From Fibrobacteria bacterium (GTDB taxonomy: Bacteria; Fibrobacterota; Fibrobacteria; UBA11236), in assembly GCA_043732185.1 (NCBI GenBank), contig JAYTHY010000087.1, positions 1 through 64,000 on the forward strand: DNA of 64,000 nucleotides, given 5' to 3'. The position numbers and the translations under genes are program-made. The notes beneath the pieces are model-generated. The model did not search any database and had not been told where the DNA came from. It saw only the letters and a program-made list of their open reading frames with translations. Within the stretch, counting starts at the first letter, position 1. Every line of letters starts with the position of its first letter. Shown here in pieces: positions 17,537-30,577 of this stretch.

Positions 17537-18346
17537 CTATTCCGTAATGTTCAAGGTATTGAATGATTTATAAAATGATGCGACAAGGGTCGCATACAGT
17601 GCCACATTATGATTGCTGTCGATTAGGGCAAATTTCAATCCATTCTTATCCACTACGGTTTCGATTGTCGAGAAGTCCACATTTGCAATCCACTTATTCG
17701 GAAAAAATTCGATTTGACAATTGTATGCCTTATCCTTGTACCATCCCAGCATTGCAGATTTTGAATAAGTCATGTGAATTTCATTAGCTGTTGGTAAGGA
17801 AAATAGAAAATTAGTATTCATATTTTTTGACCCAGAAGTTGATTTCAAATTTCCGCCATCCGCAAAGATTCCCTTTATATAACCGATATCAGAAAAGGCT
17901 GTAAAATCCATGGTTGCCGGATTCAGCGCTCTATGTTCATCGACCTTGAATTCCAAATTGATATTTTCCGGGACCTGTGCGCCTAATTTTTCCACTTTTA
18001 GATTGGCGCTTTTATCGGTACCTGTAAAATCTACGGGATCACTTATGGAATCTTCCGCCCATAGCAGTTTTTGAACCGTCGTTTGTGTGACGCTATCTTT
18101 CAGCGTATACGAAGCTTCATGCACTAGCATTTTAAAATGCTGAATTATAATCGAATCGTTATTAGATATAGTCGCCGCATACTTTCCCATTCCCAGGATT
18201 ACCGGATTTTCAGAATAGTCTATTTTGAATTCCGTACGCAGCAGCCTCTCGTCTTCCGCATTGCCGATTTCCGTGAAACACCCATTTGAAAAAAATAAAA
18301 TTCCGGTCAAAACCAAGAGAAGGAATGGACGCACCATGCAGCTCAT
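17537..18346 (-). CDS. Hypothetical lipoprotein coupled to the TIGR02147 gene
   Basis: Hydrophobic leader ending SNGC; ATGA overlap with the upstream gene. Confidence 0.7.
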   Translation of the reverse strand: MSCMVRPFLLLVLTGILFFSNGCFTEIGNAEDERLLRTEFKIDYSENPVILGMGKYAATISNNDSIIIQHFKMLVHEASYTLKDSVTQTTVQKLLWAEDSISDPVDFTGTDKSANLKVEKLGAQVPENINLEFKVDEHRALNPATMDFTAFSDIGYIKGIFADGGNLKSTSGSKNMNTNFLFSLPTANEIHMTYSKSAMLGWYKDKAYNCQIEFFPNKWIANVDFSTIETVVDKNGLKFALIDSNHNVALYATLVASFYKSFNTLNITE

Positions 18347-19191
18347 TTTGTTCTCCCTTTGCTAAGGGGAAAAAGTTGAATATTAACCTGGACGATTCTT
18401 TCGCCGTCACCATCCGATGCCGCAAAATTACGCAGCTCTTTTCGCATGAGTTGAATTTGCTTCTTTAAATTGGGCAATTCAGATTCCTTAATGGCGAAAC
18501 ATACCGACGAAATATCGCGCTCTTTACCCGGCACTTCATCCTGCGCCCAGCCTGCCAGTTTGAGCATTTGGGCGTGGTAATTCTTAACCAGAAAAGACTT
18601 AATCTCATCATCGGTTGTAATATCCGGTTCTGCGGGCTTGTAGCCGTTGGCAGTTTTCTTAATCACACCGGATGCTAGGAGCATTGATAAAGCTTCCTCG
18701 ACTTCGTAGGGTTCAACCCGTGGCAGCAATTGACTTGAAATCCAGGCTGGACTATTCCGAAAGCCCTTTAAATTGAGCATTTCTCGAATCACGATATTAT
18801 ACCACTTTCGAAAAATCTGGAGTTGCGATACCTCCAATTTTTGGAAGGTCGATTTCGAGGTAGATTGTACCAGTTTCTGGTAATAGAAATTCTTCTCTTC
18901 CAAAGTAAGTGCTTGATTGAAAAACACCAGGTTTTCAAAATATTGCGTGCGCTCTTTATCTAAATCAAGTGCGTCTGACAATTTTACCAAAGTTTTTTTA
19001 CTGAGATTTCGCTTGCCTTCCATCAAAAATTTTAGCAAACCATGGCTTGGGAATTTTGCCTTTTTAGCGAAGAAGCGCAGGGAAAATTTTGGATTCGCCT
19101 GCTTCTGAGCCTGGTAATAGTCCTGTAAATATTGCCGGTAGTTCGAATAGTTGAGAAGATCCGGCAACTTGATGGTGCTCTTCATGGACAT
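18343..19191 (-). CDS. TIGR02147-family protein (N-terminal HTH, DUF4423-like C-terminus)
   Basis: YRQYLQDYY..K..NPKFSLRFFAKKA, GKRNLS, YFENLVFFNQA, WYNIVIRE, ERDISS, VQVNIQLFPLS. Confidence 0.92.
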   Translation of the reverse strand: MSMKSTIKLPDLLNYSNYRQYLQDYYQAQKQANPKFSLRFFAKKAKFPSHGLLKFLMEGKRNLSKKTLVKLSDALDLDKERTQYFENLVFFNQALTLEEKNFYYQKLVQSTSKSTFQKLEVSQLQIFRKWYNIVIREMLNLKGFRNSPAWISSQLLPRVEPYEVEEALSMLLASGVIKKTANGYKPAEPDITTDDEIKSFLVKNYHAQMLKLAGWAQDEVPGKERDISSVCFAIKESELPNLKKQIQLMRKELRNFAASDGDGERIVQVNIQLFPLSKGRTK

Positions 19192-19354
19192 AAAAAGTAA
19201 CCTCGATTATAGCCAATGCCTGGACTTTTTATGGCGTCTTGTACACAAAAGAGTACAGAACATGTCCAATGCGAATCCTCAAGTTACATGCCTTCATTAA
19301 CTTATCAAAATGCGGACGAATGCAAAACAGACCAATCCTAGAAATTTTGATGAA

Positions 19355-20122
19355 ATGGGAATTATCAAGATTAGCTACCTGGCCATATTGGGTTGCCTAG
19401 TCCTAGCCGGCTGCGAGATTGCGCCTAAATTGACCACCCAATCGGATTTATTGACAGGATCCGGCTCAACGCCGGCTTCTCAAAAGGGACCGAGTTGCAA
19501 TAGCTGCCACAGCTATCCACTGCATGATGTGAATCACAATTACCATTTAATGTCCGCCAACGTCAATCGAAACAACTTAGGCCAGCCGGAGCTGAATGCT
19601 GTCACTACTTGCATGGATTGTCATTTCAATTCCATTCGTCACTTCTCATATGTCCACTCCGATACCACTTGGATGGATTCGAATGGAGTGGAACTAACCG
19701 GACATGCTCATGCGAGCGATAAGATTATGAAAACGGTCAGCTACCCAAGATGGCGTCCTCTACCCTATGCAACTATGGATACCACGAGAAAGGAAGCCTT
19801 GGCAACGGAAATAGACTCCTTGGTGTTTCGTCAAGCGCGCATGGGCGAAATGGTTGAATGGATGACATCCTGGGCACATAACAATGGAGTCGTCGATGTT
19901 GCCTTTGCACCCAATGATATCACGAAACCGGAATTTTTGGTTTCAGCCTACCGCCCAAAAGATTTATCCTGTTCAACCGTTACCTGTCATAATCAGCGTG
20001 ATCCCGGCTATCGCTGGATGTCACCCAGACTTGGACTGAGCAATTGCCCGTCACTAGATGGTCATGATCCTACTTGTCCTGGTGAAGTAGGGCCACCCGT
20101 TTCCCCATCGGTAGCCCCATGA
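19355..20122 (+). CDS. Lipoprotein multiheme c-type cytochrome (CxxCH/CxxxxCH family)
   Basis: Lipobox LAGC; CNSCH, CMDCH, HNNGVVDVAF...CSTVTCH. An alternative start is at 19310. Confidence 0.8.
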   Translation: MGIIKISYLAILGCLVLAGCEIAPKLTTQSDLLTGSGSTPASQKGPSCNSCHSYPLHDVNHNYHLMSANVNRNNLGQPELNAVTTCMDCHFNSIRHFSYVHSDTTWMDSNGVELTGHAHASDKIMKTVSYPRWRPLPYATMDTTRKEALATEIDSLVFRQARMGEMVEWMTSWAHNNGVVDVAFAPNDITKPEFLVSAYRPKDLSCSTVTCHNQRDPGYRWMSPRLGLSNCPSLDGHDPTCPGEVGPPVSPSVAP

Positions 20123-20349
20123 ATAAAATGAATCGGGACAGCATATTTATCTGCTTCATAATTTTGGTAACCTTGGCGTTACTGAGCGGATGCGCCTTTG
20201 TTCCCCAGGCCAATCGCGAATTCTTAAGCGACCCTATCATGCAGCGGCATGATGACAATTTGGAAAGTGCCCTGGAAGGCCATGACATGCCACGTCGTGA
20301 GGGATCTGTGGGCGGCAGTTCCGGTTCAGGTGGCGGTTGCGGATGTTAA
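20119..20349 (+). CDS. DUF4266-family small lipoprotein
   Basis: Lipobox LSGC; REFLSDPIM; C-terminus REGSVGGSSGSGGGCGC. Confidence 0.92.
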   Translation: MNKMNRDSIFICFIILVTLALLSGCAFVPQANREFLSDPIMQRHDDNLESALEGHDMPRREGSVGGSSGSGGGCGC

Positions 20350-21530
20350 GTAATTACACGGCAAACCGCGCTCTGACGTGGATTGTTATTTGTTGCGGGC
20401 TCCTGCAGGCCGAATCGGGAAGCACTTTGGAAATAAAACATGAATATTTCTGGGACCGAAATAGAGTCTGGAACCATACACCTGGTTTCGCCTTGAAAAA
20501 AGCCTTGTCCAGAAGTTGGAGCCTTGGTTGGGAACAGGAATTGGACATTGTCAGCGGAGCTTCCCGGAGGCTAGGTGCGGACAAGGTTGGCCTATTTGGA
20601 AATCGCGAAGTGGATGCTATTTCCAATGCATCCAAAGTGGAGGTCCGGCATTCCGAAAATCCTTCTCTAACTTATTCTCATAAAGGGGTGGCAATAGACG
20701 CCTCATACTATATCAGCAGGGAAAATGATTATTTCTCCCAATCACCCGCTGGTTCCATCGCGTGGGATTTCAACGATCGGAACACTACGGTAGGCGTGAA
20801 CTATGCTGAATTTTTTGACAGGTTTATACCCAAAGGCGCATACGCTGGGTTGGGAGGCAGAAAACGCATCACCAGTATGGGTGCAACGGTTGCGCAGTCC
20901 ATTACCTCCTTAACCTTGGTGGGACTAACGGCGACCTGGATACAAAGCCATGGCTTTCTAGGTCACCCCTACAATCCTCCCGTGGATGTTACCGGCACCA
21001 TGCTTTTGGAAAAAGTTCCCGATACCAAACAGGCTGGCGCATTATCAGGACAAATCGTTCAGGGATATCATTTAGGTGATCGACTAGGATCCATTAACTT
21101 AGATGCCCGAAGGTATCAAGATGATTGGGGAATGAAATCCTCGACCATTGATTTCAAATTGAGCCAGTATTTTACGGAAACCTCTTTTATCCGTTTTCGG
21201 CTTAGGTATTACAACCAATCCGGTTCCGCTTTTGCCAAGCCCATCTATACCGGTCAGGAAACGTATCGAACGGGGGATATCCGATACTATCCGTTTACAT
21301 CCTGGCTTGGAGGTGTAAAAATCTCATCCGTTTTTCCTGACAGCTGGGGAGAATCCCTTTTTCTCCCGGATCGCTGGGATATCAAATATGATCAAACTTT
21401 TCGAGATACGCGCGGGGATCCCGTAGGCACTGGCGCTGGAGTCCCTAGAAGTATTACCTATCAACTCTATGCACCTGAAGATGCATATATGCAGGGCGTG
21501 TTTATGTTTGGCCTGTCTTTCAATTTATAA
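20337..21530 (+). CDS. DUF3570-family outer-membrane beta-barrel protein
   Basis: DIVSGAS and DAISNAS motifs, SRENDYFS, DFNDRNTT, GFLGHPY, RYQDDWG, RLRYYNQS; follows DUF4266. Confidence 0.88.
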   Translation: MRMLSNYTANRALTWIVICCGLLQAESGSTLEIKHEYFWDRNRVWNHTPGFALKKALSRSWSLGWEQELDIVSGASRRLGADKVGLFGNREVDAISNASKVEVRHSENPSLTYSHKGVAIDASYYISRENDYFSQSPAGSIAWDFNDRNTTVGVNYAEFFDRFIPKGAYAGLGGRKRITSMGATVAQSITSLTLVGLTATWIQSHGFLGHPYNPPVDVTGTMLLEKVPDTKQAGALSGQIVQGYHLGDRLGSINLDARRYQDDWGMKSSTIDFKLSQYFTETSFIRFRLRYYNQSGSAFAKPIYTGQETYRTGDIRYYPFTSWLGGVKISSVFPDSWGESLFLPDRWDIKYDQTFRDTRGDPVGTGAGVPRSITYQLYAPEDAYMQGVFMFGLSFNL

Positions 21531-21542
21531 AGGAGAACCAAT

Positions 21543-22220
21543 ATGAATATTTCGATGCCACATACGCTCGCTAAAACCGCCGCGCTATTTTGCATGGCCG
21601 CTTCATTTCAAGTACATGCCGCCAAGTTCACCAGACTGCCTGAATTCACTTTGCAGGATGTCGATGGAAAGGCTTGGAGCAGTTCCGAATTAAATGGAAA
21701 GGCATGTGTGGTAGATTTTTGGGCGACATGGTGCAATACCTGTAAGGAAACCATTCCCAAGCTTGCCGAGTTGAGCAGCAAATACAAGGACCAGGGACTT
21801 GTTGTTGTCGGTATCAGTGTTGACAAAGGCTCTTCCGAAAAAATCGGCAAGGCCGCGAAAAAACTTGGCATCAACTACCTGGTTTTACTCGATAAAGAAA
21901 ATTCCCTCAGTAAATCCTTTGGCTTCACGGGCATTCCTTCTCTATATGTTTTTGACGGCCACGGAAATTTGAAAACGGCGATGCCGGGATACGATCCCGA
22001 TCAAGAAAAACAGTTGACCGTGGCTACGGATCAGGCCCTAGCGGAACAAGTCGCGGAAACCGATAAGGCCAAGGTAATGGAGAAGGACAAGGAAAAAGAG
22101 AAAGAAAACGCCCGGCTGGAAGAATTAGCCTTGGCCTCAAAGGCTCAGGAAGGCTCTAACAAAGTGTCACATAGCCACGATGTTAAAACCAAAAAGACCA
22201 AAAAGAAGGCGGGAACATGA
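21543..22220 (+). CDS. TlpA-family thiol:disulfide reductase with a charged C-terminal tail
   Basis: VDFWATWCNTC, VVGISVD, cis-Pro loop GIPS; signal peptide. Confidence 0.92.
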   Translation: MNISMPHTLAKTAALFCMAASFQVHAAKFTRLPEFTLQDVDGKAWSSSELNGKACVVDFWATWCNTCKETIPKLAELSSKYKDQGLVVVGISVDKGSSEKIGKAAKKLGINYLVLLDKENSLSKSFGFTGIPSLYVFDGHGNLKTAMPGYDPDQEKQLTVATDQALAEQVAETDKAKVMEKDKEKEKENARLEELALASKAQEGSNKVSHSHDVKTKKTKKKAGT

Positions 22221-22915
22221 TTAGCAGTCAAAATTTAACCACAGCACTTTCAACTGGGTCCCTTGGGGCAATAGTGTTGTGCTTTCTGGCAGGAGTTGGT
22301 TCCAGCTTTACCCCATGTATTTACCCATTGATTCCCGTGACGATAAGCATTCTGGGTACTCGAAATGCCGAATCGAAATTTCGTGGGTTCTTACTCACCT
22401 TGTTTTATGTCGGTGGAATTGCCACAACCTATGCAGCCCTGGGAATGGTAGCGGCTTTCACCGGATCTCTATTTGGTTCCCTAAGTTCTAATTCATGGGT
22501 GCTCCTGGGCGTGGCCGCAGTTGTCATGGCCCTTGCGCTCAATATGCTCGACGTTTTCCAAATCAATTTCGCGCGACTCACGATGGGTGGCAACGGCCAG
22601 CATAAGCAAGGGTTGTTTTCAAATTTTATTTATGGTTTAACATTCGGACTTGTGGCCTCACCCTGTACAGCACCTCCTCTAGCTGTGATACTCGCATGGG
22701 TAGGCTCTACCCACAATGTAATCATGGGTCCTCTACTCCTTTTTGTTTTTGCGCTGGGAATGGGTTCCATTCTGATCATGATTGGCACCTTCTCCTCCTT
22801 TCTCACCCGACTTCCCCGTTCCGGCATGTGGATGGTCTACATCAAAAAAATCATGGGTTACATGATGGTTTTAATGTCAGGGTACTTCGTATTCCAAGCC
22901 GGCGTTCAATGGTAA
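22217..22915 (+). CDS. ccdA: CcdA/DsbD transmembrane electron transporter
   Basis: SSFTPCIYPLIP, ASPCTAP, LPRSGMWM; about 6 TM segments. Confidence 0.9.
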   Translation: MISSQNLTTALSTGSLGAIVLCFLAGVGSSFTPCIYPLIPVTISILGTRNAESKFRGFLLTLFYVGGIATTYAALGMVAAFTGSLFGSLSSNSWVLLGVAAVVMALALNMLDVFQINFARLTMGGNGQHKQGLFSNFIYGLTFGLVASPCTAPPLAVILAWVGSTHNVIMGPLLLFVFALGMGSILIMIGTFSSFLTRLPRSGMWMVYIKKIMGYMMVLMSGYFVFQAGVQW

Positions 22916-22940
22916 AACCATCAATTAAATGGAGTCAAAA

Positions 22941-23729
22941 ATGAACAGAAAAATTATTTCAACGGCCACGGCAATTCTGATCGCTTTCCTCTGCATAACA
23001 CGTAATAACGTAGTCGCCCGTCCCGATGCGGTCTCCGCAGCCAGCCTAACAGTTACGGTCACCAGCGTGACCGCTACCACCGCTGTCATCACTTATTCAA
23101 AAGACAAATATGATTACGGCACCCGAACGCTTTGTTATGATCCCGCTCCTGCTGTTGCCAAAAACAATTGCACAGTTAAAAATGCAGCAGGAAATCAAGG
23201 AACATTCACCATTTCCGGATTGTCATCCGGCATCGTCTACAATTTCAACATCCAAGCCATTGATACCCAAGGTGGTGAGAAGCCTTATGCCACTGCTGGA
23301 TCCTTTACAACCTTGACTTCGACGGTTATTTCTCCGGCTAGTATTTCTACCCAACCCAGCAATCAAACAGTCAAAGTCGGCTCAGCGGCGACATTTAGCG
23401 TAATTGCGGCAGGCACGCCAACGTTAACCTATCAGTGGCGCAAAGGCGGAGTAAACATCACTGGCGCCACTTTGGCCAGCTATACCACTCCGGCTACGGT
23501 AATTGGAGACAATGGCGGTTTGTATTCTGTCGTGATTAATAACGGGGCCATGCTTCCTGTTACAAGCGCGAATGCTACTTTGACTGTACAACCCGTTACC
23601 CAAATAGCATCCTATGCCCAAAAGCTGCGCGGTTCTCATTCGCTCCACGGCGAAGTCTATGACCTACGGGGCCGACCGATTCTTAAAAAAGGCACCCAAA
23701 CAAGTTCTTCCGTTCGACCCATTAAATAG
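22941..23729 (+). CDS. Secreted FN3-like plus Ig-domain protein with an N-terminal DAVSAAS motif
   Basis: Signal peptide; ISGLSSGIVYNFNIQA; ISTQPSNQTV..G..ATFSV...TLTYQWRK...DNGGLYSVVI; tail YDLRGR. An alternative start is at 22929. Confidence 0.8.
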   Translation: MNRKIISTATAILIAFLCITRNNVVARPDAVSAASLTVTVTSVTATTAVITYSKDKYDYGTRTLCYDPAPAVAKNNCTVKNAAGNQGTFTISGLSSGIVYNFNIQAIDTQGGEKPYATAGSFTTLTSTVISPASISTQPSNQTVKVGSAATFSVIAAGTPTLTYQWRKGGVNITGATLASYTTPATVIGDNGGLYSVVINNGAMLPVTSANATLTVQPVTQIASYAQKLRGSHSLHGEVYDLRGRPILKKGTQTSSSVRPIK

Positions 23730-23835
23730 TATTGGCCCAATCCTCGTCCTGATTCTCTCCCTGTCGCAGTTCCAGGGGAGAATCCTACATTTTTTTCCTA
23801 TAATAGAATCCAGAATGCCTTGCAAGGAAGTTAAA

Positions 23836-24882
23836 ATGCCATTCCGATTCGTAGCCCCTTTTTTGGCCTTGTTTTTTGTCAACTGTCAGGATACGGCAAG
23901 AACGCACAACTGGTTTGCCATGGATACGAACATGGCTGTCTCACTTTTCGGATCCACTCCAGTTTCCGATGACAGCGTCTTTTACCGTCTGGAAGCGGAA
24001 ACAGAACGATTAAACCTTTTATTTAGTGATTTCTCATCTCGTTCCGCTTTATCAGAAATAAAGGGTCACATCGGTGATACTGTAACGGTTCATCCGGAAA
24101 TATATCAAGTTCTAAAAATCGCTCTAGATGTAGGCGAAGCCACTCACGGTTCCTTTGATATCACCCTGCATGACTTGAAATGGATGTGGGGCCTCGGAAG
24201 TGGTCAAACCGGTCATGTACCAGATTCGACCAGCCTAGATTCCCTTCTGAAGGATAACCCCACCTATCATTCGCTGTGGGAGACGCCCAACCATAGGCCA
24301 CCGCTGACCTTACTTTCAGGCAATCGAGCCGTGCTGCATCGCGAAAATACCCAAATTGATTTAGGCGCTATCGCCAAAGGTTTTATAGTGGATAAGCTGC
24401 ATGCATTGCTCGATTCCCTTGGTTGCCCCAACCATATTCTGCAAGCCGGAGGAGAGATTCGGCTCGGCGGAAAAAAAAAGTCCGGCACCTGGAGCATCGG
24501 CATACGACATCCCCGCGCAGCAGATTCCTTGAGCGGGCTGATTGCGAGCATCACCCCAAAAGCAATTTCCACATCCGGTGACTATGAACGGTTTTTCGAA
24601 TCAGGGGGAATACGCTATCACCACATCTTTGATCCCCGAACTGGTAAACCCGCACCAAAATATTGTGGCGTGACTGTTGTTACGGATTCAAGTGTTTGGG
24701 CCGATGCCATGTCCACTTCGCTTTTTATCCTTGGTCCGGAAAAAGGCATGCCCGTAGCACGACAATATCATGCGGCCGCTGTTTGGTTTGAGGCGCGACC
24801 AACTGGATTATGTGCCATCCCCATGCCGGAAATTTTTCCCATACTTAACCTACAGGGAATGTCTAACTGTAGCTCCCGATAA
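23836..24882 (+). CDS. apbE: FAD:protein FMN transferase ApbE
   Basis: FAMDT, GSFDIT, IDLGAIAKG, AGGEI, STSGDYERFF, YHHIFDPRTG, ADAMST; RBS before ATG 23836. Confidence 0.95.
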   Translation: MPFRFVAPFLALFFVNCQDTARTHNWFAMDTNMAVSLFGSTPVSDDSVFYRLEAETERLNLLFSDFSSRSALSEIKGHIGDTVTVHPEIYQVLKIALDVGEATHGSFDITLHDLKWMWGLGSGQTGHVPDSTSLDSLLKDNPTYHSLWETPNHRPPLTLLSGNRAVLHRENTQIDLGAIAKGFIVDKLHALLDSLGCPNHILQAGGEIRLGGKKKSGTWSIGIRHPRAADSLSGLIASITPKAISTSGDYERFFESGGIRYHHIFDPRTGKPAPKYCGVTVVTDSSVWADAMSTSLFILGPEKGMPVARQYHAAAVWFEARPTGLCAIPMPEIFPILNLQGMSNCSSR

Positions 24883-24890
24883 GGCCTGTA

Positions 24891-25283
24891 TTGCAACCTC
24901 GCACATTTTTTCGCCCATTCGACGTTCTTGTTATCCTATTAGTAATCGGTTCCGGCGCATGGGCCATGCTGACTTTTCGTTATACTGAAGGCAGCCGAGC
25001 TGTGGTTTACATCGCCAATAAAAAATTCGCCTGGTACCCTTTGGCAGGAGAGACAAGACGCATTTCCATCCCAACGCAAATAGGAATGGTGTGGCTAGAA
25101 ATCGGATCGGGCACTGCTCGCGTAGTGAGCTCACCCTGTCCAAATAAACTCTGCGTTAAAACCGGAGTTGTCCGCCACAGTCATGAAGAAATCGTTTGTC
25201 TGCCGGCCAAGCTGCTGCTCACTCTGGAGGGCCCAGATGGACCCGGGCACATGAAAGCCGGAGCCGATGCCATCACCTATTAA
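24891..25283 (+). CDS. NusG domain II (DUF1312)-containing membrane-anchored protein, EetA-like
   Basis: N-terminal TM; SPCPNKLCVKTG...IVCLP. Confidence 0.9.
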   Translation: MQPRTFFRPFDVLVILLVIGSGAWAMLTFRYTEGSRAVVYIANKKFAWYPLAGETRRISIPTQIGMVWLEIGSGTARVVSSPCPNKLCVKTGVVRHSHEEIVCLPAKLLLTLEGPDGPGHMKAGADAITY

Positions 25284-26373
25284 GAAATTAAATCTCAACG
25301 CGGTCAAGCCACAGGCTTTTGCTTTGGCACTATTGATAGCCACCAGTCTACAAATCATGGAAAACCTGGTGCCGCGCATTCCATTGTTTCCTTGGATGCG
25401 AATTGGGCTTTCCTATGTCATCATTCTCCCTTTTCTCCTTGAGTACGGTGCGGCCCCCGCCTTTACACTTCTCCTGGCCCGTAATCTAATCGCTGTCCTT
25501 TATGGAGGCCAACCCTTTTCAACCTTCCTGATTGGGACAGGAGCCGGTGCCCTGGCACTGTTGGGCCTGGGGCCAATGATTCGTTGGCTCACCCATCAGC
25601 GATTTCTGGGCGTTCTCGGTGCGAGTGTTCTTTTAGCCACAGCTTTTAATTTGGCGCAATTGGCATTGGTCAAATGGCTGCTCATTCGCCATGCAGGTTT
25701 CTATTTCATGATTGGACCCATGTTGGCTTGGTCGCTTTTTTCTGGAGGGCTCGTGGCCGCGTTGGTCCATTATTCCGAATCCGATTTAACGCGCATGTTC
25801 ACGATAAGCGATAGTGGGCCCCAAACTCAACCCGTGAGTCCATCCACGATTTCAAAACAGCCTTTCAACAACTTGCACTTTTGCTTTGGTTTAGTGGCCC
25901 TGGCTGGATTACTACTTGGCAATTTATTTTGGATTCAAATTCCCGCACTGATTATTCTCATCTGGTTCTCACCCGATCGAGGCAAACGACTGGTAGCGGC
26001 TTGGCCTTTTTTCTTCTACATCGCCTATCTGCACTTGTTCCATACCCCTGGGAAGTTCTTTTTTAGAGATTGGGTAACCTATGAAGGACTGTCCCAATTT
26101 GGCGTCAACTCCTTACGGCTCGCCAATACCATTTTACTCGGCAGGATGCTGTCTCAAAAGTTTCCCTGGAAACTGGCCAGAAACTCCAAATCCCCGTACT
26201 TGCAGGGATTCCTCATGTCGTTGCCACTACTAACCAATATGTTTGAATCAAGTATGGAATTTGGCAGGGTGATTGGCAAACAGTTCTTAAAGGGTCAACG
26301 AAAGGGTTTGCTCACACCAGCCTTTGAGGCGTGGCGAACCAAAATGGAAGCTGGGACCAAAGATGCCCTTTAA
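25267..26373 (+). CDS. Gx transporter (HepS component I-like, EetB-like) with an EcfT-like C-terminal extension
   Basis: LQIMENLVPRIPLFPWMRIGLS, ATAFNLAQL; C-terminal LHLFHTPG...VTYEGL......LRL. Confidence 0.8.
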   Translation: MPSPIKKLNLNAVKPQAFALALLIATSLQIMENLVPRIPLFPWMRIGLSYVIILPFLLEYGAAPAFTLLLARNLIAVLYGGQPFSTFLIGTGAGALALLGLGPMIRWLTHQRFLGVLGASVLLATAFNLAQLALVKWLLIRHAGFYFMIGPMLAWSLFSGGLVAALVHYSESDLTRMFTISDSGPQTQPVSPSTISKQPFNNLHFCFGLVALAGLLLGNLFWIQIPALIILIWFSPDRGKRLVAAWPFFFYIAYLHLFHTPGKFFFRDWVTYEGLSQFGVNSLRLANTILLGRMLSQKFPWKLARNSKSPYLQGFLMSLPLLTNMFESSMEFGRVIGKQFLKGQRKGLLTPAFEAWRTKMEAGTKDAL

Positions 26374-26387
26374 ATGATGCGTAGCTT

Positions 26388-27707
26388 TTAAAAAAAGTAG
26401 GCGACTTTGCTGGACCAATACCATTCACTGGGCTTGAAAAGTACGGCTTCCATGGCAGGTGGATTATTGTCTCCGTAGCCTTTGAAAATGCCGGGACGGA
26501 AATGATCGCTGGCAGCTTGGATGCTTATTTTAACATGCTTTTGAAACACCTTAGACCCATATAATGACCATTTAAAATTATCTTCGGAATAGTTGGTGTC
26601 CAACTTCCCGATAGGAAATGGTGTAGGTGCACCGTAATGGTTATAACCAGATAAATCGTCTTTGAATTTTGCAGTATACCTCTCAAACTCAAAAGAGAGC
26701 CGATCCAAAACCTTGAAAGTAGGCAAGTTAATGCCAACCATAATTGGCATCCTATTTGAGTAATTTCCGTAAAGAGCCCTGTATGGTAAACCATTGTTCA
26801 ATCCAAGAATGGCTACTTCTCCATAGATTTTTAAATCCTCTGGGCCAAGTAATTCCAAATGCCCGAAAAGTGCCTTAAGGTCAATGGAGGCATTGGCCAT
26901 GACTTTAGTCCCTTTAAAGGAAATCCGAGTTGTATCGTCCACTACTGGTAATGTATCGATATAAATATTATTGGTATCAGATGTTATCTTGTTATCGATT
27001 GGAATCATGTGATAAAAATTGACCCCAGCTCCAATTCGAAAGAACCTACCAAAAGTATAGCTCGTAACATATGCTGGAGAAATGTCCCAGTAGGGATAAT
27101 ATTCTGTTTCAAAGGCAAACAGCATATCGTTTTCAAAGCCACCTGTTTGGTGGTGAAATTGAAAACCTAAAGTATTGGCAACGGGCAGCACGTATTTCGT
27201 TTCAAAACCGGATAGCACATATCCTGGATAGACCGGCCCGCGCAATAAGTATAGGCCCAAATTTTGGGCATCAGGATTATAATCATAGGCGAATAACCCA
27301 GCACGAACGGAAAATTTGGTTTCGCCTTCATCCAAAACTCTGTAGTTGAAATTAGCGTTGGAGACATAAGGTGACACATCGACAGGAGCATATCCCCCCT
27401 CTCCATAATTTGCGGACAAAGAATGCCCGGCAACAGCACCAATGCCAGCCTCGATTCTAAGTTTTTCGGAAGGATTAATTGCAAAAGAGAACTGGGCTCC
27501 TGAGGAAATGAGCGGCTTCCAATCTAACCGTTTCCCTTGCGTCGTATCACTGCTTTTTACAATTGAAGCATACTGCATCCAGCCTGCTGCATGAAATGTT
27601 TTGTTCGAAAAATCGACAGCATGTACTGACGTAGCGACCATTGCTATTGCACTTATCCCTTTGACGCCATTAATGCGAAGGATTTTCAAAAATGTGCAAA
27701 GACTCAT
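26388..27707 (-). CDS. Putative outer-membrane beta-barrel protein, paralog 3
   Basis: Signal peptide; YNPDAQNLGLYLLRGPVYPG; ends KVAYFF. Confidence 0.75.
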   Translation of the reverse strand: MSLCTFLKILRINGVKGISAIAMVATSVHAVDFSNKTFHAAGWMQYASIVKSSDTTQGKRLDWKPLISSGAQFSFAINPSEKLRIEAGIGAVAGHSLSANYGEGGYAPVDVSPYVSNANFNYRVLDEGETKFSVRAGLFAYDYNPDAQNLGLYLLRGPVYPGYVLSGFETKYVLPVANTLGFQFHHQTGGFENDMLFAFETEYYPYWDISPAYVTSYTFGRFFRIGAGVNFYHMIPIDNKITSDTNNIYIDTLPVVDDTTRISFKGTKVMANASIDLKALFGHLELLGPEDLKIYGEVAILGLNNGLPYRALYGNYSNRMPIMVGINLPTFKVLDRLSFEFERYTAKFKDDLSGYNHYGAPTPFPIGKLDTNYSEDNFKWSLYGSKVFQKHVKISIQAASDHFRPGIFKGYGDNNPPAMEAVLFKPSEWYWSSKVAYFF

Positions 27708-27725
27708 TGATGCCTTCCTGAAGTC

Positions 27726-29063
27726 CTAGAAAAAATACGCAAGTTTAGTAGTCCAATACCAATCTTCAGGCGTTCGCATCGCCTCGATTCCTGCGTCCTG
27801 ATCGTGGTTTCCGCCTAAACGCAGGTGATCGTTTGCGACCTGGGTAGATAATGCCAGGTTTCCAAGCAAAACCTTTGAAACATTCACCGACCATTTCCAA
27901 TCGTCTCGTTTAGTATTGATTCGAGGATCGTCCACAACTGAGACCCAAGATCCGTTTCGAGCAGCTAAATTATCACCTGAAAGTTTGTTGGCATAATATT
28001 CGATTTCTATTGAAGAAGTCAGGAAATTAAAACCAGGAAGGTTGACTCCGAACATAATAGGCATGCGGCGTAGGATCTTGTTATACAACTTGGCATAGTT
28101 ATGCACGCCAATAATTCCAACTTCACTGTAGATTACCAAATCATCTTTTCCAAAAAGGCTTATTGCGTTTGAAAAAAATGCTTTTGGATCCAATCTTAAG
28201 CGCGCGATGGCTTTAACGCCGCCCAAGGAACCGAGAATTGTATCGATAACTACCCCAGAAGTATCCTTGACGACAATAAAACACGGATTTTCTTGCCCTC
28301 CGTTGGCATACGGGCCGAGGAAGTTCGCGTTACAATCCTTGCCAGGTGAGGTAAGTTTCTTATTCATAGGAATCAAACGGCTGAAATTAATGCCAGCACT
28401 GAGATCAAATCCTTTAAAGGTCGAAATTGTCATGACATCTGCAACAGAAATATCGTAAATTGGCTTCTCATCCATTTCGGCATTGGCAATTAAATCATTT
28501 TGCCAGGATCCTGCTTTCAATTTCCCAATCATTCCAAAAATATTTCCGGAACCAGAAACCAAGGTACCTGGATAAACATACCCGTGTAATAGATATGATC
28601 CCAGATTCTTGGCATCCGGATTGTAAGTGTAGCCCATGGAACCAAAACTGAATTGTAAGCCACTCCCAGCTGCATAGCCGCCCGAAGAGTAAGTCAAACG
28701 GGCTTCTGATACAAATGGGACCCAAAAGGGATACCATTTATTAGCCTGCCCCGGAGCGCCTCTGGCCAAATGGACCATTATGGTTCCTATACCTAAACCG
28801 CCGTCCCAATTATCATCAATCACAGCTTTAGAGGTTAGAACTGCACCTGAATTTCCAAGCCAATTATTTTCATAATCGTTGCCGTTACCGGGCAGTGAAA
28901 AACTATTCTCCACCCGTCCTAATTGAAGCCACCCTGCTCCATGGTATTCCAATTTTAATTCCTGAGTCATTGCGCCATTCGAAATCGCACTCATCAAGAA
29001 TACCCAAACTAAAACCTGCGTCAATGGCGACCTCGTTGCCCATGCATTCGGATGGCGACTCAA
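27726..29063 (-). CDS. Putative outer-membrane beta-barrel protein, paralog 2
   Basis: YNPDAKNLGSYLLHGYVYPG; ends KLAYFF. TTG at 29063 overlaps the upstream stop; track start is 29096. Confidence 0.75.
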   Translation of the reverse strand: MSRHPNAWATRSPLTQVLVWVFLMSAISNGAMTQELKLEYHGAGWLQLGRVENSFSLPGNGNDYENNWLGNSGAVLTSKAVIDDNWDGGLGIGTIMVHLARGAPGQANKWYPFWVPFVSEARLTYSSGGYAAGSGLQFSFGSMGYTYNPDAKNLGSYLLHGYVYPGTLVSGSGNIFGMIGKLKAGSWQNDLIANAEMDEKPIYDISVADVMTISTFKGFDLSAGINFSRLIPMNKKLTSPGKDCNANFLGPYANGGQENPCFIVVKDTSGVVIDTILGSLGGVKAIARLRLDPKAFFSNAISLFGKDDLVIYSEVGIIGVHNYAKLYNKILRRMPIMFGVNLPGFNFLTSSIEIEYYANKLSGDNLAARNGSWVSVVDDPRINTKRDDWKWSVNVSKVLLGNLALSTQVANDHLRLGGNHDQDAGIEAMRTPEDWYWTTKLAYFF

Positions 29064-30577
29064 AAGAAATACCCCATTCGAATTAAGAAATACCAATCTT
29101 TGGGGGAAGCAAAAGCTTCTTGAGTTCCACCTTCAGCCTTTATTAATCCTGTCGCCACTGGCTTAGGCCTATAATGATCGTTTGCTAACTGACCAGAAAT
29201 CCTGATATGATTGCTGATGACTTTTTCGGCGAGCACGGACCATTTGATATTATCCAAGGTTTGATTTTCCTTGTCTAGCGCCGTACCTTTGACACGAACA
29301 GTATCTGCCTTTGCAGGATCGATTGGATCAGGTTTGATCCAGAAGCCAGTAAGAGTATCGATGCCATAATCCGCATAGCCAACCGGTTTTGGCGAGGGAA
29401 TGGGATGGTTTTGAATTGTCCAACCTGCTACCGTATTATTGTTTCCAACGCGGGCGAGATCGCTGCGATACAAAGCACCATAATATTCAACTTCAAGGGA
29501 AAGATGAGTCAACCAACCGCCCGTAGGAAAATTGAATCCCAACATCAGGGGGATGCGCTGTGAAATATCAGCATATGCTTTCCCATAATTTTTTAAGCCA
29601 ATCACACCAACTTCCCCGTATAACTTTAGGTCATCTGGATTTGATAATTGTTTCCCTAGTGCCTTTTGAAGGTCCAATCCGAACATCCCCATCAGCTTGG
29701 TGCCTTGGTGCGTGAAAAAAACCGTGTCAGTGGAACCCGGTGTCGTTTCAACATATCGACTCTTTTTGAATCCCAATTCCGCATCACTGAAATATTTTCC
29801 GGGTGTTTCCAATTTTGATTTATAGGCAAGTAACCGATAAAAATTTACACCGGCTCCAATTTCAAGTGGGCCTGCCTGAATTTTTGCGATATAGGCAAGA
29901 CTCCAATCCAATGTCGGAGGAATTTCTCGTTCACTATTCAAAATCAAATCATGTGAAATGGCACCAATTTTTTGATGCAGGTTCAATCCTAAAATCGTAC
30001 TTTTTGTCGTATCAACTGCAAAGTCCTGGTATCCACTCATCAGAATGCCTGGGTAAACGGGTCCACGCAGCAAATACAAGCCCAGGTTTTTGACATCAGC
30101 ATTGTATTTATAAGGAAAACTGCCAAGGGTTATGCTTAGCGAAGGTGCAACTTTCTCTCCAAGAAAATAAGTTAATCGGGATTGAGTAAGGAAATTCTGG
30201 AAAAGTGAAATAGCCATCAGTTGTTGGGAGCCATTCCCAAGCGAATGGTTTATTTTCTGCACTCCAAAGCCGACCGCACCCACCAGGTTTTCCGAAAGAT
30301 CAGCCTCAACTGTAAACTGAGCGCCCATACTCTGAAGAGTATTACCATTTAAATTGAGAACATTGTTTGGGGCTGCACCTCTTATCAGCGTATCAGTCAT
30401 ATGCATGATTCGACCGCCATCAAACCACGCCTGACCGTGGATTTGAAAGGCTGGCGCCAATTCCGAGTAGGAAAAGGAAGCCAACAATCCAAGGGCTATT
30501 CCGCCTAGCGCAAGGGGTTGCATTGCCAAAAATATTTTTTGTGACATAAATTTTTTGACTTGCTTCATCTGAATCAC
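29060..30577 (-). CDS. Putative outer-membrane beta-barrel protein, paralog 1
   Basis: YNADVKNLGLYLLRGPVYPG; ends RMGYFF. Confidence 0.75.
   Translation of the reverse strand: MIQMKQVKKFMSQKIFLAMQPLALGGIALGLLASFSYSELAPAFQIHGQAWFDGGRIMHMTDTLIRGAAPNNVLNLNGNTLQSMGAQFTVEADLSENLVGAVGFGVQKINHSLGNGSQQLMAISLFQNFLTQSRLTYFLGEKVAPSLSITLGSFPYKYNADVKNLGLYLLRGPVYPGILMSGYQDFAVDTTKSTILGLNLHQKIGAISHDLILNSEREIPPTLDWSLAYIAKIQAGPLEIGAGVNFYRLLAYKSKLETPGKYFSDAELGFKKSRYVETTPGSTDTVFFTHQGTKLMGMFGLDLQKALGKQLSNPDDLKLYGEVGVIGLKNYGKAYADISQRIPLMLGFNFPTGGWLTHLSLEVEYYGALYRSDLARVGNNNTVAGWTIQNHPIPSPKPVGYADYGIDTLTGFWIKPDPIDPAKADTVRVKGTALDKENQTLDNIKWSVLAEKVISNHIRISGQLANDHYRPKPVATGLIKAEGGTQEAFASPKDWYFLIRMGYFF

Follow-up and report, generated by a model that had tools for sequence, protein, structure and literature searches.

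What could be accomplished by nine tightly packed genes that bring together a heme protein, a flavin transferase, a thiol pathway and a putative flavin exporter, and in which direction would electrons move between their products? This question is raised by a stretch of 64,000 nucleotides (the window) from a Fibrobacteria bacterium of the phylum Fibrobacterota (contig JAYTHY010000087.1, assembly GCA_043732185.1), in which nine co-oriented plus-strand open reading frames (ORFs) fill positions 19310-26373, with intergenic gaps of -4, -13, 12, -4, 13, 106, 8 and -17 nt in gene order (Table 1). The source genome (G000, with the operon on its contig C87) was scored as 100% complete. An annotation made earlier from the sequence alone (the original prediction) had described the nine genes as co-oriented and tightly packed, which was confirmed, and had assigned them to families; hidden Markov models (HMMs) bore this out, with eight of the nine products above the Pfam cut-off and the first gene being recognised from its motifs. 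We propose, with a probability of roughly one half, that the operon encodes an outward, low-flux relay that passes electrons from thiols to flavin and on to heme across the outer membrane.

Five of the nine genes, CcdA included, correspond to the published 'DsbD system' (Meheust et al. 2021, eLife, PMC8238504), in which a PF02683 protein and DUF4266 are joined by DUF3570, ApbE and a protein resembling thioredoxin. As in that system, a DsbD_TM protein, a thioredoxin-like protein, a DUF4266 protein with a C-terminal CXC, a DUF3570 protein with two motifs (the second of them without the canonical Gly here) and ApbE are clustered, the PF02683 and PF02424 genes lying two genes apart. The original prediction had recognised DUF4266-DUF3570-thioredoxin-ApbE as a cluster known from diderms, which holds, although the published system already includes CcdA as well. 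Covalent FMN on DUF3570 has been shown only for the protein of Chlorobium luteolum, at two sites, and the function of the system was left open (PMC8238504). The operon studied here differs in adding a triheme lipocytochrome, an Fn3 protein that is a candidate ApbE substrate and an eetA/eetB-T pair, and neither DUF3570 as a barrel nor DUF4266 as a plug is described in the excerpts of PMC8238504. PF07009, PF07456 and 'Fibrobacter' gave no matches in three small supplements of that paper, whose supplement 1 may list such neighbours.

The AlphaFold2 model of the DUF3570 protein (predicted local distance difference test, pLDDT, 83.7) has 16 strands, with loops of 4, 29, 3, 10, 22, 4, 25 and 23 residues after the odd strands and turns of 4, 2, 4, 3, 2, 5 and 13 residues after the even ones. 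Both flavin mononucleotide (FMN) motifs fall in the 29-residue loop, and because long loops follow odd strands and short turns even ones, standard topology would place this loop outside; the protein is thus predicted to be a 16-strand outer-membrane barrel with both motifs on an outer loop. Site 1 (DIVSGAS) is canonical, and site 2 (DAISNAS) has Asn where at least 90% of 25 homologs have Gly; Ala occupies the motif Gly position ([ST]AAS) in 9 of 36 DUF3570 motifs from 20 further loci of the phylum. Throughout G000 the strict flavinylation motif occurs three times in 2.2 million ORF residues, two of these being in DUF3570 proteins. Some DUF3570 proteins of relatives (loci L051, L233, L129 and L133) contain three copies of the motif in the same loop.

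The original prediction had suggested modelling these proteins as a complex, and for DUF3570 with DUF4266 this gave a score of 0.71, against 0.28 for the best control, on a scale where 116 of 157 solved complexes attain the mark applied, as do 2 of 215 mismatched pairs, and where existing barrels with lipoprotein plugs may raise the score. We know of no solved complex of the two families. Runs share at least 52% of contacts, with a partner pLDDT of at least 54, and DUF4266 contacts 13 of the 16 strands, mostly at alternating residues of the polar face, strands 9 and 16 fitting less well. Its residues 40-41 make contact with strands 10-12 at their periplasmic ends, and residues 48-52 lie farther along strands 1-3 and 16, an arrangement that suggests an outward course of the chain. 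DUF4266 is modelled as a plug, predicted to dock within the DUF3570 lumen. Its terminal GGGCGC is invariant in 23/23 DUF4266 proteins.

The first gene had been described as a multiheme CxxxxCH cytochrome added to the known module; the added cytochrome is real, with the correction that it carries two CxxCH motifs and one CX4CH and that TIGR01904 scores it at 16.7 bits, below the cut-off of 27. The same model matches 22/22 homologs at E<=0.1 (best 5e-08), in all of which the lipobox Cys, six heme Cys and six His are invariant, a set of residues that three bis-His hemes would fit. No solved structural relative was found in the structure search, and Atlas look-ups gave just cytochrome c7/CX4CH and Fn3 leads, with scores of at most 0.90. 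A third cytochrome homolog of G000 stands alone at C26:1732-2388, and in relatives we observed a cytochrome of 949 aa, convergent with gx, that combines Ig-like domains with three CxxCH (L042:13254-16103, minus strand, genome G023) and a cytochrome of a paralogous cassette split into two ORFs (L045:10321-10935, G008). In two genomes (L231:7154-15722 in G242; L232 in G197), a DUF2271-cytochrome-DUF4266-DUF3570-TlpA cassette is convergent with a multiheme cluster of proteins with 4, 4, 9 and 11 CxxCH, one of which is a fusion with cytochrome b561, and with a barrel-like protein of 410 aa.

A survey of DUF3570 neighbourhoods, as suggested with the original prediction, found the complete nine-gene set in 8 of 48 Fibrobacterota loci, including genomes from a different family of the class, and as the same set clusters in these loci the grouping is not due to chance. 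Local profiles detected the cytochrome in 41 of the 48 loci, DUF4266 in 44, CcdA in 21, Fn3 in 20, nusG-II with gx in 12 and apbE in 10; just 20 of the loci had room on both sides of DUF3570, kin are non-independent, several loci share one genome, and the unpublished genome G011 is included as one row on which no conclusion rests. The unit most often retained is cytochrome-DUF4266-DUF3570, and TlpA lies directly downstream of 27 of 47 DUF3570 genes. The closest relatives of the DUF3570 protein in the window are from Fibrobacteria and Fibrobacterota. Outside the class, the cytochrome is found beside DUF3570 in 10 of 11 loci, there with 4-6 CxxCH. Of 30 loci belonging to other phyla, 21 contain TlpA and none the cytochrome, Fn3, nusG-II or gx, though profiles trained on Fibrobacteria may miss distant forms.

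The secreted protein encoded behind ccdA had been called an Ig protein. An Ig_3 domain is indeed present, but the conserved part consists of the N-terminal DAVSAAS motif, which the original prediction missed, and an Fn3 domain, Ig being absent from seven aligned homologs, one of them cut by a contig end. A motif-free Fn3 profile yielded 29 distinct proteins in 30 loci (of 32 matches); in 28 of these proteins D-x-x-[ST]-[GAS]-[AGS]-[ST] directly follows the signal peptide, in canonical form in 12 of the 29. The motif is present in 16 of the 17 held-out members, against a background of 12 of 4166 ORFs. Some bias remains in these figures, the loci having first been found with a motif-containing profile, and a whole-library search with the Fn3 profile gave generic multi-Fn3 proteins and was uninformative. 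The site in the window agrees at six of seven positions with D-x-x-[ST]-G-A-[ST], the motif given in PMC10722498 and 10.1101/2023.03.04.531086, and a Gly-to-Ala change in such a tag leaves about 50% flavinylation, terminal tags being labelled best (PMC12052999). Like the engineered Flavin-tags (PMC12052999) and DUF2271, a proven ApbE substrate (PMC8238504), this is a secreted protein with a short site close to that motif; it differs in bearing the site as a terminal tag attached to an Fn3 domain, the natural equivalent of what was engineered. DUF2271 proteins whose motif is canonical adjoin the cassette in G242, G197, G233 and G092; DUF2271 was not found in G000, and the Fn3 protein probably stands in for the DUF2271 of other Fibrobacterota. 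Judged by its sequences, the Fn3 family is a candidate for a new class of ApbE substrates; 'fibronectin' and 'DsbD' do not occur in the excerpts of PMC11334425. In a longer Fn3 subfamily (L252, L254, L256 and L266) the motif stands between cysteines (C-DxxTGAS-C), and these genes lie behind a cytochrome gene even at sites remote from DUF3570.

FMN would be supplied by the last three genes. ApbE, whose start is most likely 23836 (with an AAGGAAG ribosome site upstream) rather than 23614, has a single match in G000, and RnfD/NqrB (PF03116) was not found there, so that Rnf/Nqr was dropped as a client and the DUF3570 proteins would be the major ones; the simple reading of the gene order is that supply genes are grouped with the client they chiefly serve. 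A separate FMN_bind gene with a canonical DGISGAT, amid uncharacterised membrane and secreted genes at C135:6309-9956 of G000, likely encodes another ApbE client. The last gene had been annotated as a Gx transporter, which the PF07456 match supports, yet that match covers only residues 24-168 of 368 and the EcfT-like fusion was missed. In the model (pLDDT 83.7), residues 10-180 adopt an S-component fold (RibU: Z 11.4, root-mean-square deviation (rmsd) 3.5, 165 aligned, VIA-align), residues 196-300 resemble chain 5d3m_D of a folate energy-coupling factor (ECF) transporter (Z 8.7, rmsd 3.3, 105 aligned) and residues 196-368 resemble chain 5x41_Q of CbiMQO (Z 6.8, rmsd 7.1, 158 aligned), both of which we take to be ECF T components; for helical bundles, Z values of this size are modest, and Foldseek gave no match to the model at E<=0.001. 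Homology of the tail extends across the phylum (probability 96.7). PF02361 was found in 0/26 and 0/28 members, and the comparison with the CbiQ profile was weak, hhalign giving probabilities of 0.5 and 6.2.

A separate PF02361 gene was not found in G000. Of its 66 ABC matches the best reached 183 bits against an ECF ATPase cut-off of 315, no ECF Q-loop motif was present in 36 ABC ORFs, and no ECF ATPase exceeded the cut-off in any of 61 genomes (34 candidates scored in each), a divergent ATPase still being conceivable; the five best candidates adjoin cbiQ genes. The models thus suggest an EetB fused to a shortened EcfT-like domain, with no ECF ATPase detected. EetB-EcfT fusions have been named before, and a 384-aa EetB was listed for one Fibrobacterota genome (Rivera-Lugo et al. 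2023, mBio, PMC9973259); DUF3570, PF12094, DUF4266 and PF14086 gave no matches in the first 4 million characters of Data Set S1 of that paper. The Listeria EetA/EetB/FmnA(+EcfA/A') exporter shares with the genes described here the PF07456 S-component, the NusG_II partner and adjacency to apbE, but here the putative T part is shortened and is not recognised by PF02361, and the ATPase is not detected.

In the proposed relay, EetA and EetB-EcfT would export flavin adenine dinucleotide (FAD), and ApbE would place FMN on the two sites of DUF3570, in the periplasm and prior to barrel insertion, and probably also on the Fn3 protein. DUF4266 would enter the barrel lumen from the periplasmic side, its flexible GG..GGGCGC tail reaching the FMN loop at the outer mouth. 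Electrons would pass from cytoplasmic thioredoxin through CcdA and TlpA to the CGC of DUF4266, a path already put forward, up to the FMN barrel, in the original prediction and which reads as plausible; two at a time they would move from CGC to the FMN pair, and then singly to the triheme lipocytochrome and to the Fn3 protein with its FMN tag. Reducing power would thereby become available at the surface at low flux, most likely serving metal (iron) reduction and uptake or the upkeep of surface enzymes, and not respiration. FAD export, FMN transfer and outward flow via CcdA follow from known families, while we infer the transfers from CGC to FMN and from FMN to heme, the surface location, the acceptor and the direction. 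A role in re-reducing lytic polysaccharide monooxygenases was dropped, PF03067 not being found in G000.

Several points weigh against this relay. Flavinylation, heme binding and electron flow are deduced for every protein of the operon, and the canonical Gly is absent from both site 2 of DUF3570 (SNAS) and the Fn3 site (SAAS). The FMN loop is modelled with low confidence (pLDDT <50, residues 53-74) and the CGC tail lies outside the confident contacts, for which reason their meeting can only be presumed; the relay offers no explanation of how periplasmic TlpA would gain access to the CGC if this lies at the outer mouth of a barrel that is plugged. The cytochrome could face either side of the outer membrane. 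TlpA is not directly downstream of 20 of 47 DUF3570 genes, though it may act in trans. The EcfT assignment comes from structure, its sequence support being weak. Finally, G000 encodes SprA and 52 TIGR04183 matches, Fibrobacterota are listed among possible carriers of the type IX secretion system (PMC11285876), and surface-sorted proteins lie beside DUF4266/DUF3570/TlpA in a few species (10.1101/2023.06.07.544157); TIGR04183, however, matches 0/11 Fn3 proteins, which end in no more than a short D-x-x-G-[RK] tail; export of the Fn3 protein to the surface is therefore unproven.

The same genes may be arranged differently. CcdA and TlpA could serve maturation alone, holding the CGC and the Cys of the apocytochrome in reduced form for heme attachment of the CcsBA type, within a flavin-bridged porin-cytochrome conduit whose working electrons the respiratory chain would deliver through a cytochrome facing the periplasm. 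We regard this as unlikely, though more probable than the other alternatives: a CcsBA-type synthase gene is present in G000, and synthases of this type need a CcdA/ResA pair; resB and ccsA directly follow ccdA in the cassette of G092, and ccsA lies beside that of G208; the unit kept most often is the cytochrome with DUF4266 and DUF3570, TlpA not being adjacent in the 20 of 47 cases above; and the cassettes of G242 and G197 abut the multiheme cluster. Against it, TlpA follows DUF4266/DUF3570 without the cytochrome in other phyla (21/30 as against 0/30), DUF4266 is predicted to occupy the lumen, a heme wire would find little room in a barrel of 16 strands, and maturation could be served by the second of the two DsbD_TM proteins of G000. 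The direction could also be inward, the complex acting as a surface thiol oxidase or redox sensor that passes electrons from external thiols through CGC, FMN and heme to oxygen or the respiratory chain, in the manner of an Erv-type flavin-cysteine relay. A flexible Cys pair, a flavin and a c-type heme would suit either direction, heme-copper oxidase genes are present in G000, and a Cys pair of the Fn3 domain is conserved among nearer homologs; still, the paper checked did not confirm the analogy with a CGC of Erv2, and CcdA/DsbD proteins move electrons outward (PMC8238504), CcdA being in the main locus at 21 of 48 loci, which makes this use quite improbable.

A transport role, in which the barrel would move a solute or metal bound by CGC and reduced locally by flavins and hemes for uptake, appears very unlikely. 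The DUF3570 model is closest in fold to barrels that serve export, PelB, BcsC and PgaA (Z about 20), and the VIT1 iron transporter occurs in 25 flavinylation-associated clusters (PMC8238504), but the fold matches, at 8-12% identity, are common to many 16-strand barrels, the lumen is predicted to be plugged, and no metal transporter is among the nine genes. Least probable is the hybrid as worded in the original prediction, an extracellular electron transfer (EET) pathway of the Gram-positive kind merged with a diderm module, which is largely refuted. The Listeria EET electron carriers include Ndh2 and DmkA/B as well as the FMN-bind protein PplA, and none of these families has a match among the nine genes. 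The eetA/eetB pair does belong to the Listeria EET locus and in 12 of 48 loci lies beside the DUF3570 block, yet EetB exports FAD and deletion of eetA had no EET phenotype in Listeria monocytogenes (PMC9973259). The pair is moreover resident in the phylum: 98 of the 201 Fibrobacterota genomes have a PF07456 match, in nearly every case a single one, the frames being some 330-500 aa long, nusG-II adjoins eetB in 30/30 loci (the best 30 PF07456 matches by score), the pair often lies away from DUF3570 within the class, and outside it eetB and DUF3570 are on different contigs in 10 of 10 genomes with both, these assemblies being fragmented. In other phyla, eetB occurs in one of 30 DUF3570 genomes, a gammaproteobacterium (L179) with apbE-nusG-II-short gx. 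As the pair is resident, often apart from DUF3570 and also present in this gammaproteobacterium, the operon is better read as one redox system with its cofactor supply than as a hybrid.

Table 1. Genes, motifs and other features of the operon, with positions in the window
Feature	Position	Strand	Basis or remark
Lipid-anchored triheme c-type cytochrome, TIGR01904-like	19310..20122	+	Lipobox Cys, heme motifs
Cytochrome heme motifs	CxxCH 19496-19510; CxxCH 19610-19624; CX4CH 19970-19990	+	Plus three further invariant His
DUF4266 lipoprotein, predicted lumen plug	20119..20349	+	PF14086, 47.9 bits; Gly-rich tail ending CGC (20338-20346)
DUF3570, predicted 16-strand outer-membrane barrel	20337..21530	+	PF12094, 102 bits
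ApbE motifs of DUF3570	DIVSGAS 20544-20564; DAISNAS 20613-20633	+	Both on the beta3-beta4 loop
TlpA/ResA-like periplasmic thioredoxin	21543..22220	+	PF00578/PF08534 (AhpC-TSA/Redoxin, 83 bits); WCNTC; lineage-specific charged tail; scored below cut-off by ResA/TlpA models
CcdA (DsbD_TM)	22217..22915	+	PF02683, 152 bits; Cys34 and Cys150
Secreted Fn3 (+Ig) protein, candidate ApbE substrate	22929..23729	+	Ig_3, 32 bits
Flavinylation-like motif DAVSAAS	23025-23045	+	Predicted mature N-terminus of the Fn3 protein, which has a short D-x-x-G-R tail
Hairpin, then T run and TATAAT	23751..23784	+	Inverted repeat I9; possible boundary between redox and flavin-supply genes
ApbE FMN transferase	23836..24882	+	PF02424, 232 bits
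EetA (NusG_II domain with N-terminal membrane anchor)	24891..25283	+	PF07009, 76 bits
EetB (residues 10-180) fused to shortened EcfT-like domain (196-368), putative FAD exporter	25267..26373	+	PF07456, 63 bits

A transcription boundary in the 106-nt gap before apbE is possible, not shown, because folding of the hairpin there is not significant (z -0.69); the terminator scan did not list it, and promoter and terminator counts across the window matched shuffled sequence. Divergent from the operon lies a TIGR02147/DUF4423 gene (18343-19191, minus strand), a possible regulator, whose homologs flank the cassette in many relatives, being co-oriented in family f4, and which has 24 paralogs in G000. 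On the other side, three tandem genes of 439-505 aa (26388-30577, minus strand), each ending in YFF and without a Pfam or NCBIfam match, are likely to encode paralogous outer-membrane barrels. A second cassette of G000 (C129:12596-15258) consists of cytochrome-DUF4266-DUF3570-TlpA without ccdA or apbE, and a third type of DUF3570 with one motif (C74:133209-137359 of G000; also L236, L237, L239 and L240) sits behind TlpA and a lipoprotein of about 745 aa with two CxxCH, the L237 homolog of which matches HZS_alpha (hydrazine synthase alpha middle domain).

The porin-cytochrome conduits MtrCAB and Geobacter Pcc likewise have an outer-membrane barrel gene beside a lipid-anchored multiheme cytochrome, but the system described here differs in its predicted 16 strands, covalent FMN sites and three hemes, in its proposed thiol input and in the predicted content of the lumen, a lipoprotein tipped with cysteines instead of a heme wire. 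The original prediction had held the combination to be undescribed, and no description of it, of the DUF4266 plug or of the Fn3 substrate was found in the literature searched, subscription papers being outside its scope; new here are the barrel and plug model, the triheme lipocytochrome partner, the Fn3 flavin-tag family and the putative EetB-EcfT fusion without a detected ATPase. Tentatively, and with the odds rather against it, these could be parts of a new class of trans-outer-membrane conduit, in which a threaded DUF4266 cysteine arm feeds surface flavins that discharge, in Fibrobacterota, onto a triheme cytochrome at the surface and onto an Fn3 shuttle that is exported and flavin-tagged, FAD arriving via an ATPase-free ECF S-T fusion.

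The DUF3570 system has been without a mechanism since 2021, and the plug model together with the heme partner makes specific tests possible. The phylum-wide EetB-T fusion without a detectable ECF ATPase bears on how FAD is delivered to ApbE in diderms and on the ATP need of ECF export. If the substrate assignment is true, the Fn3 family would be a natural class of ApbE substrates whose terminal tag is overlooked by the strict motif, and if the relay is true, a thiol-fed, flavin-based way of crossing the outer membrane would join the heme-wire kind.

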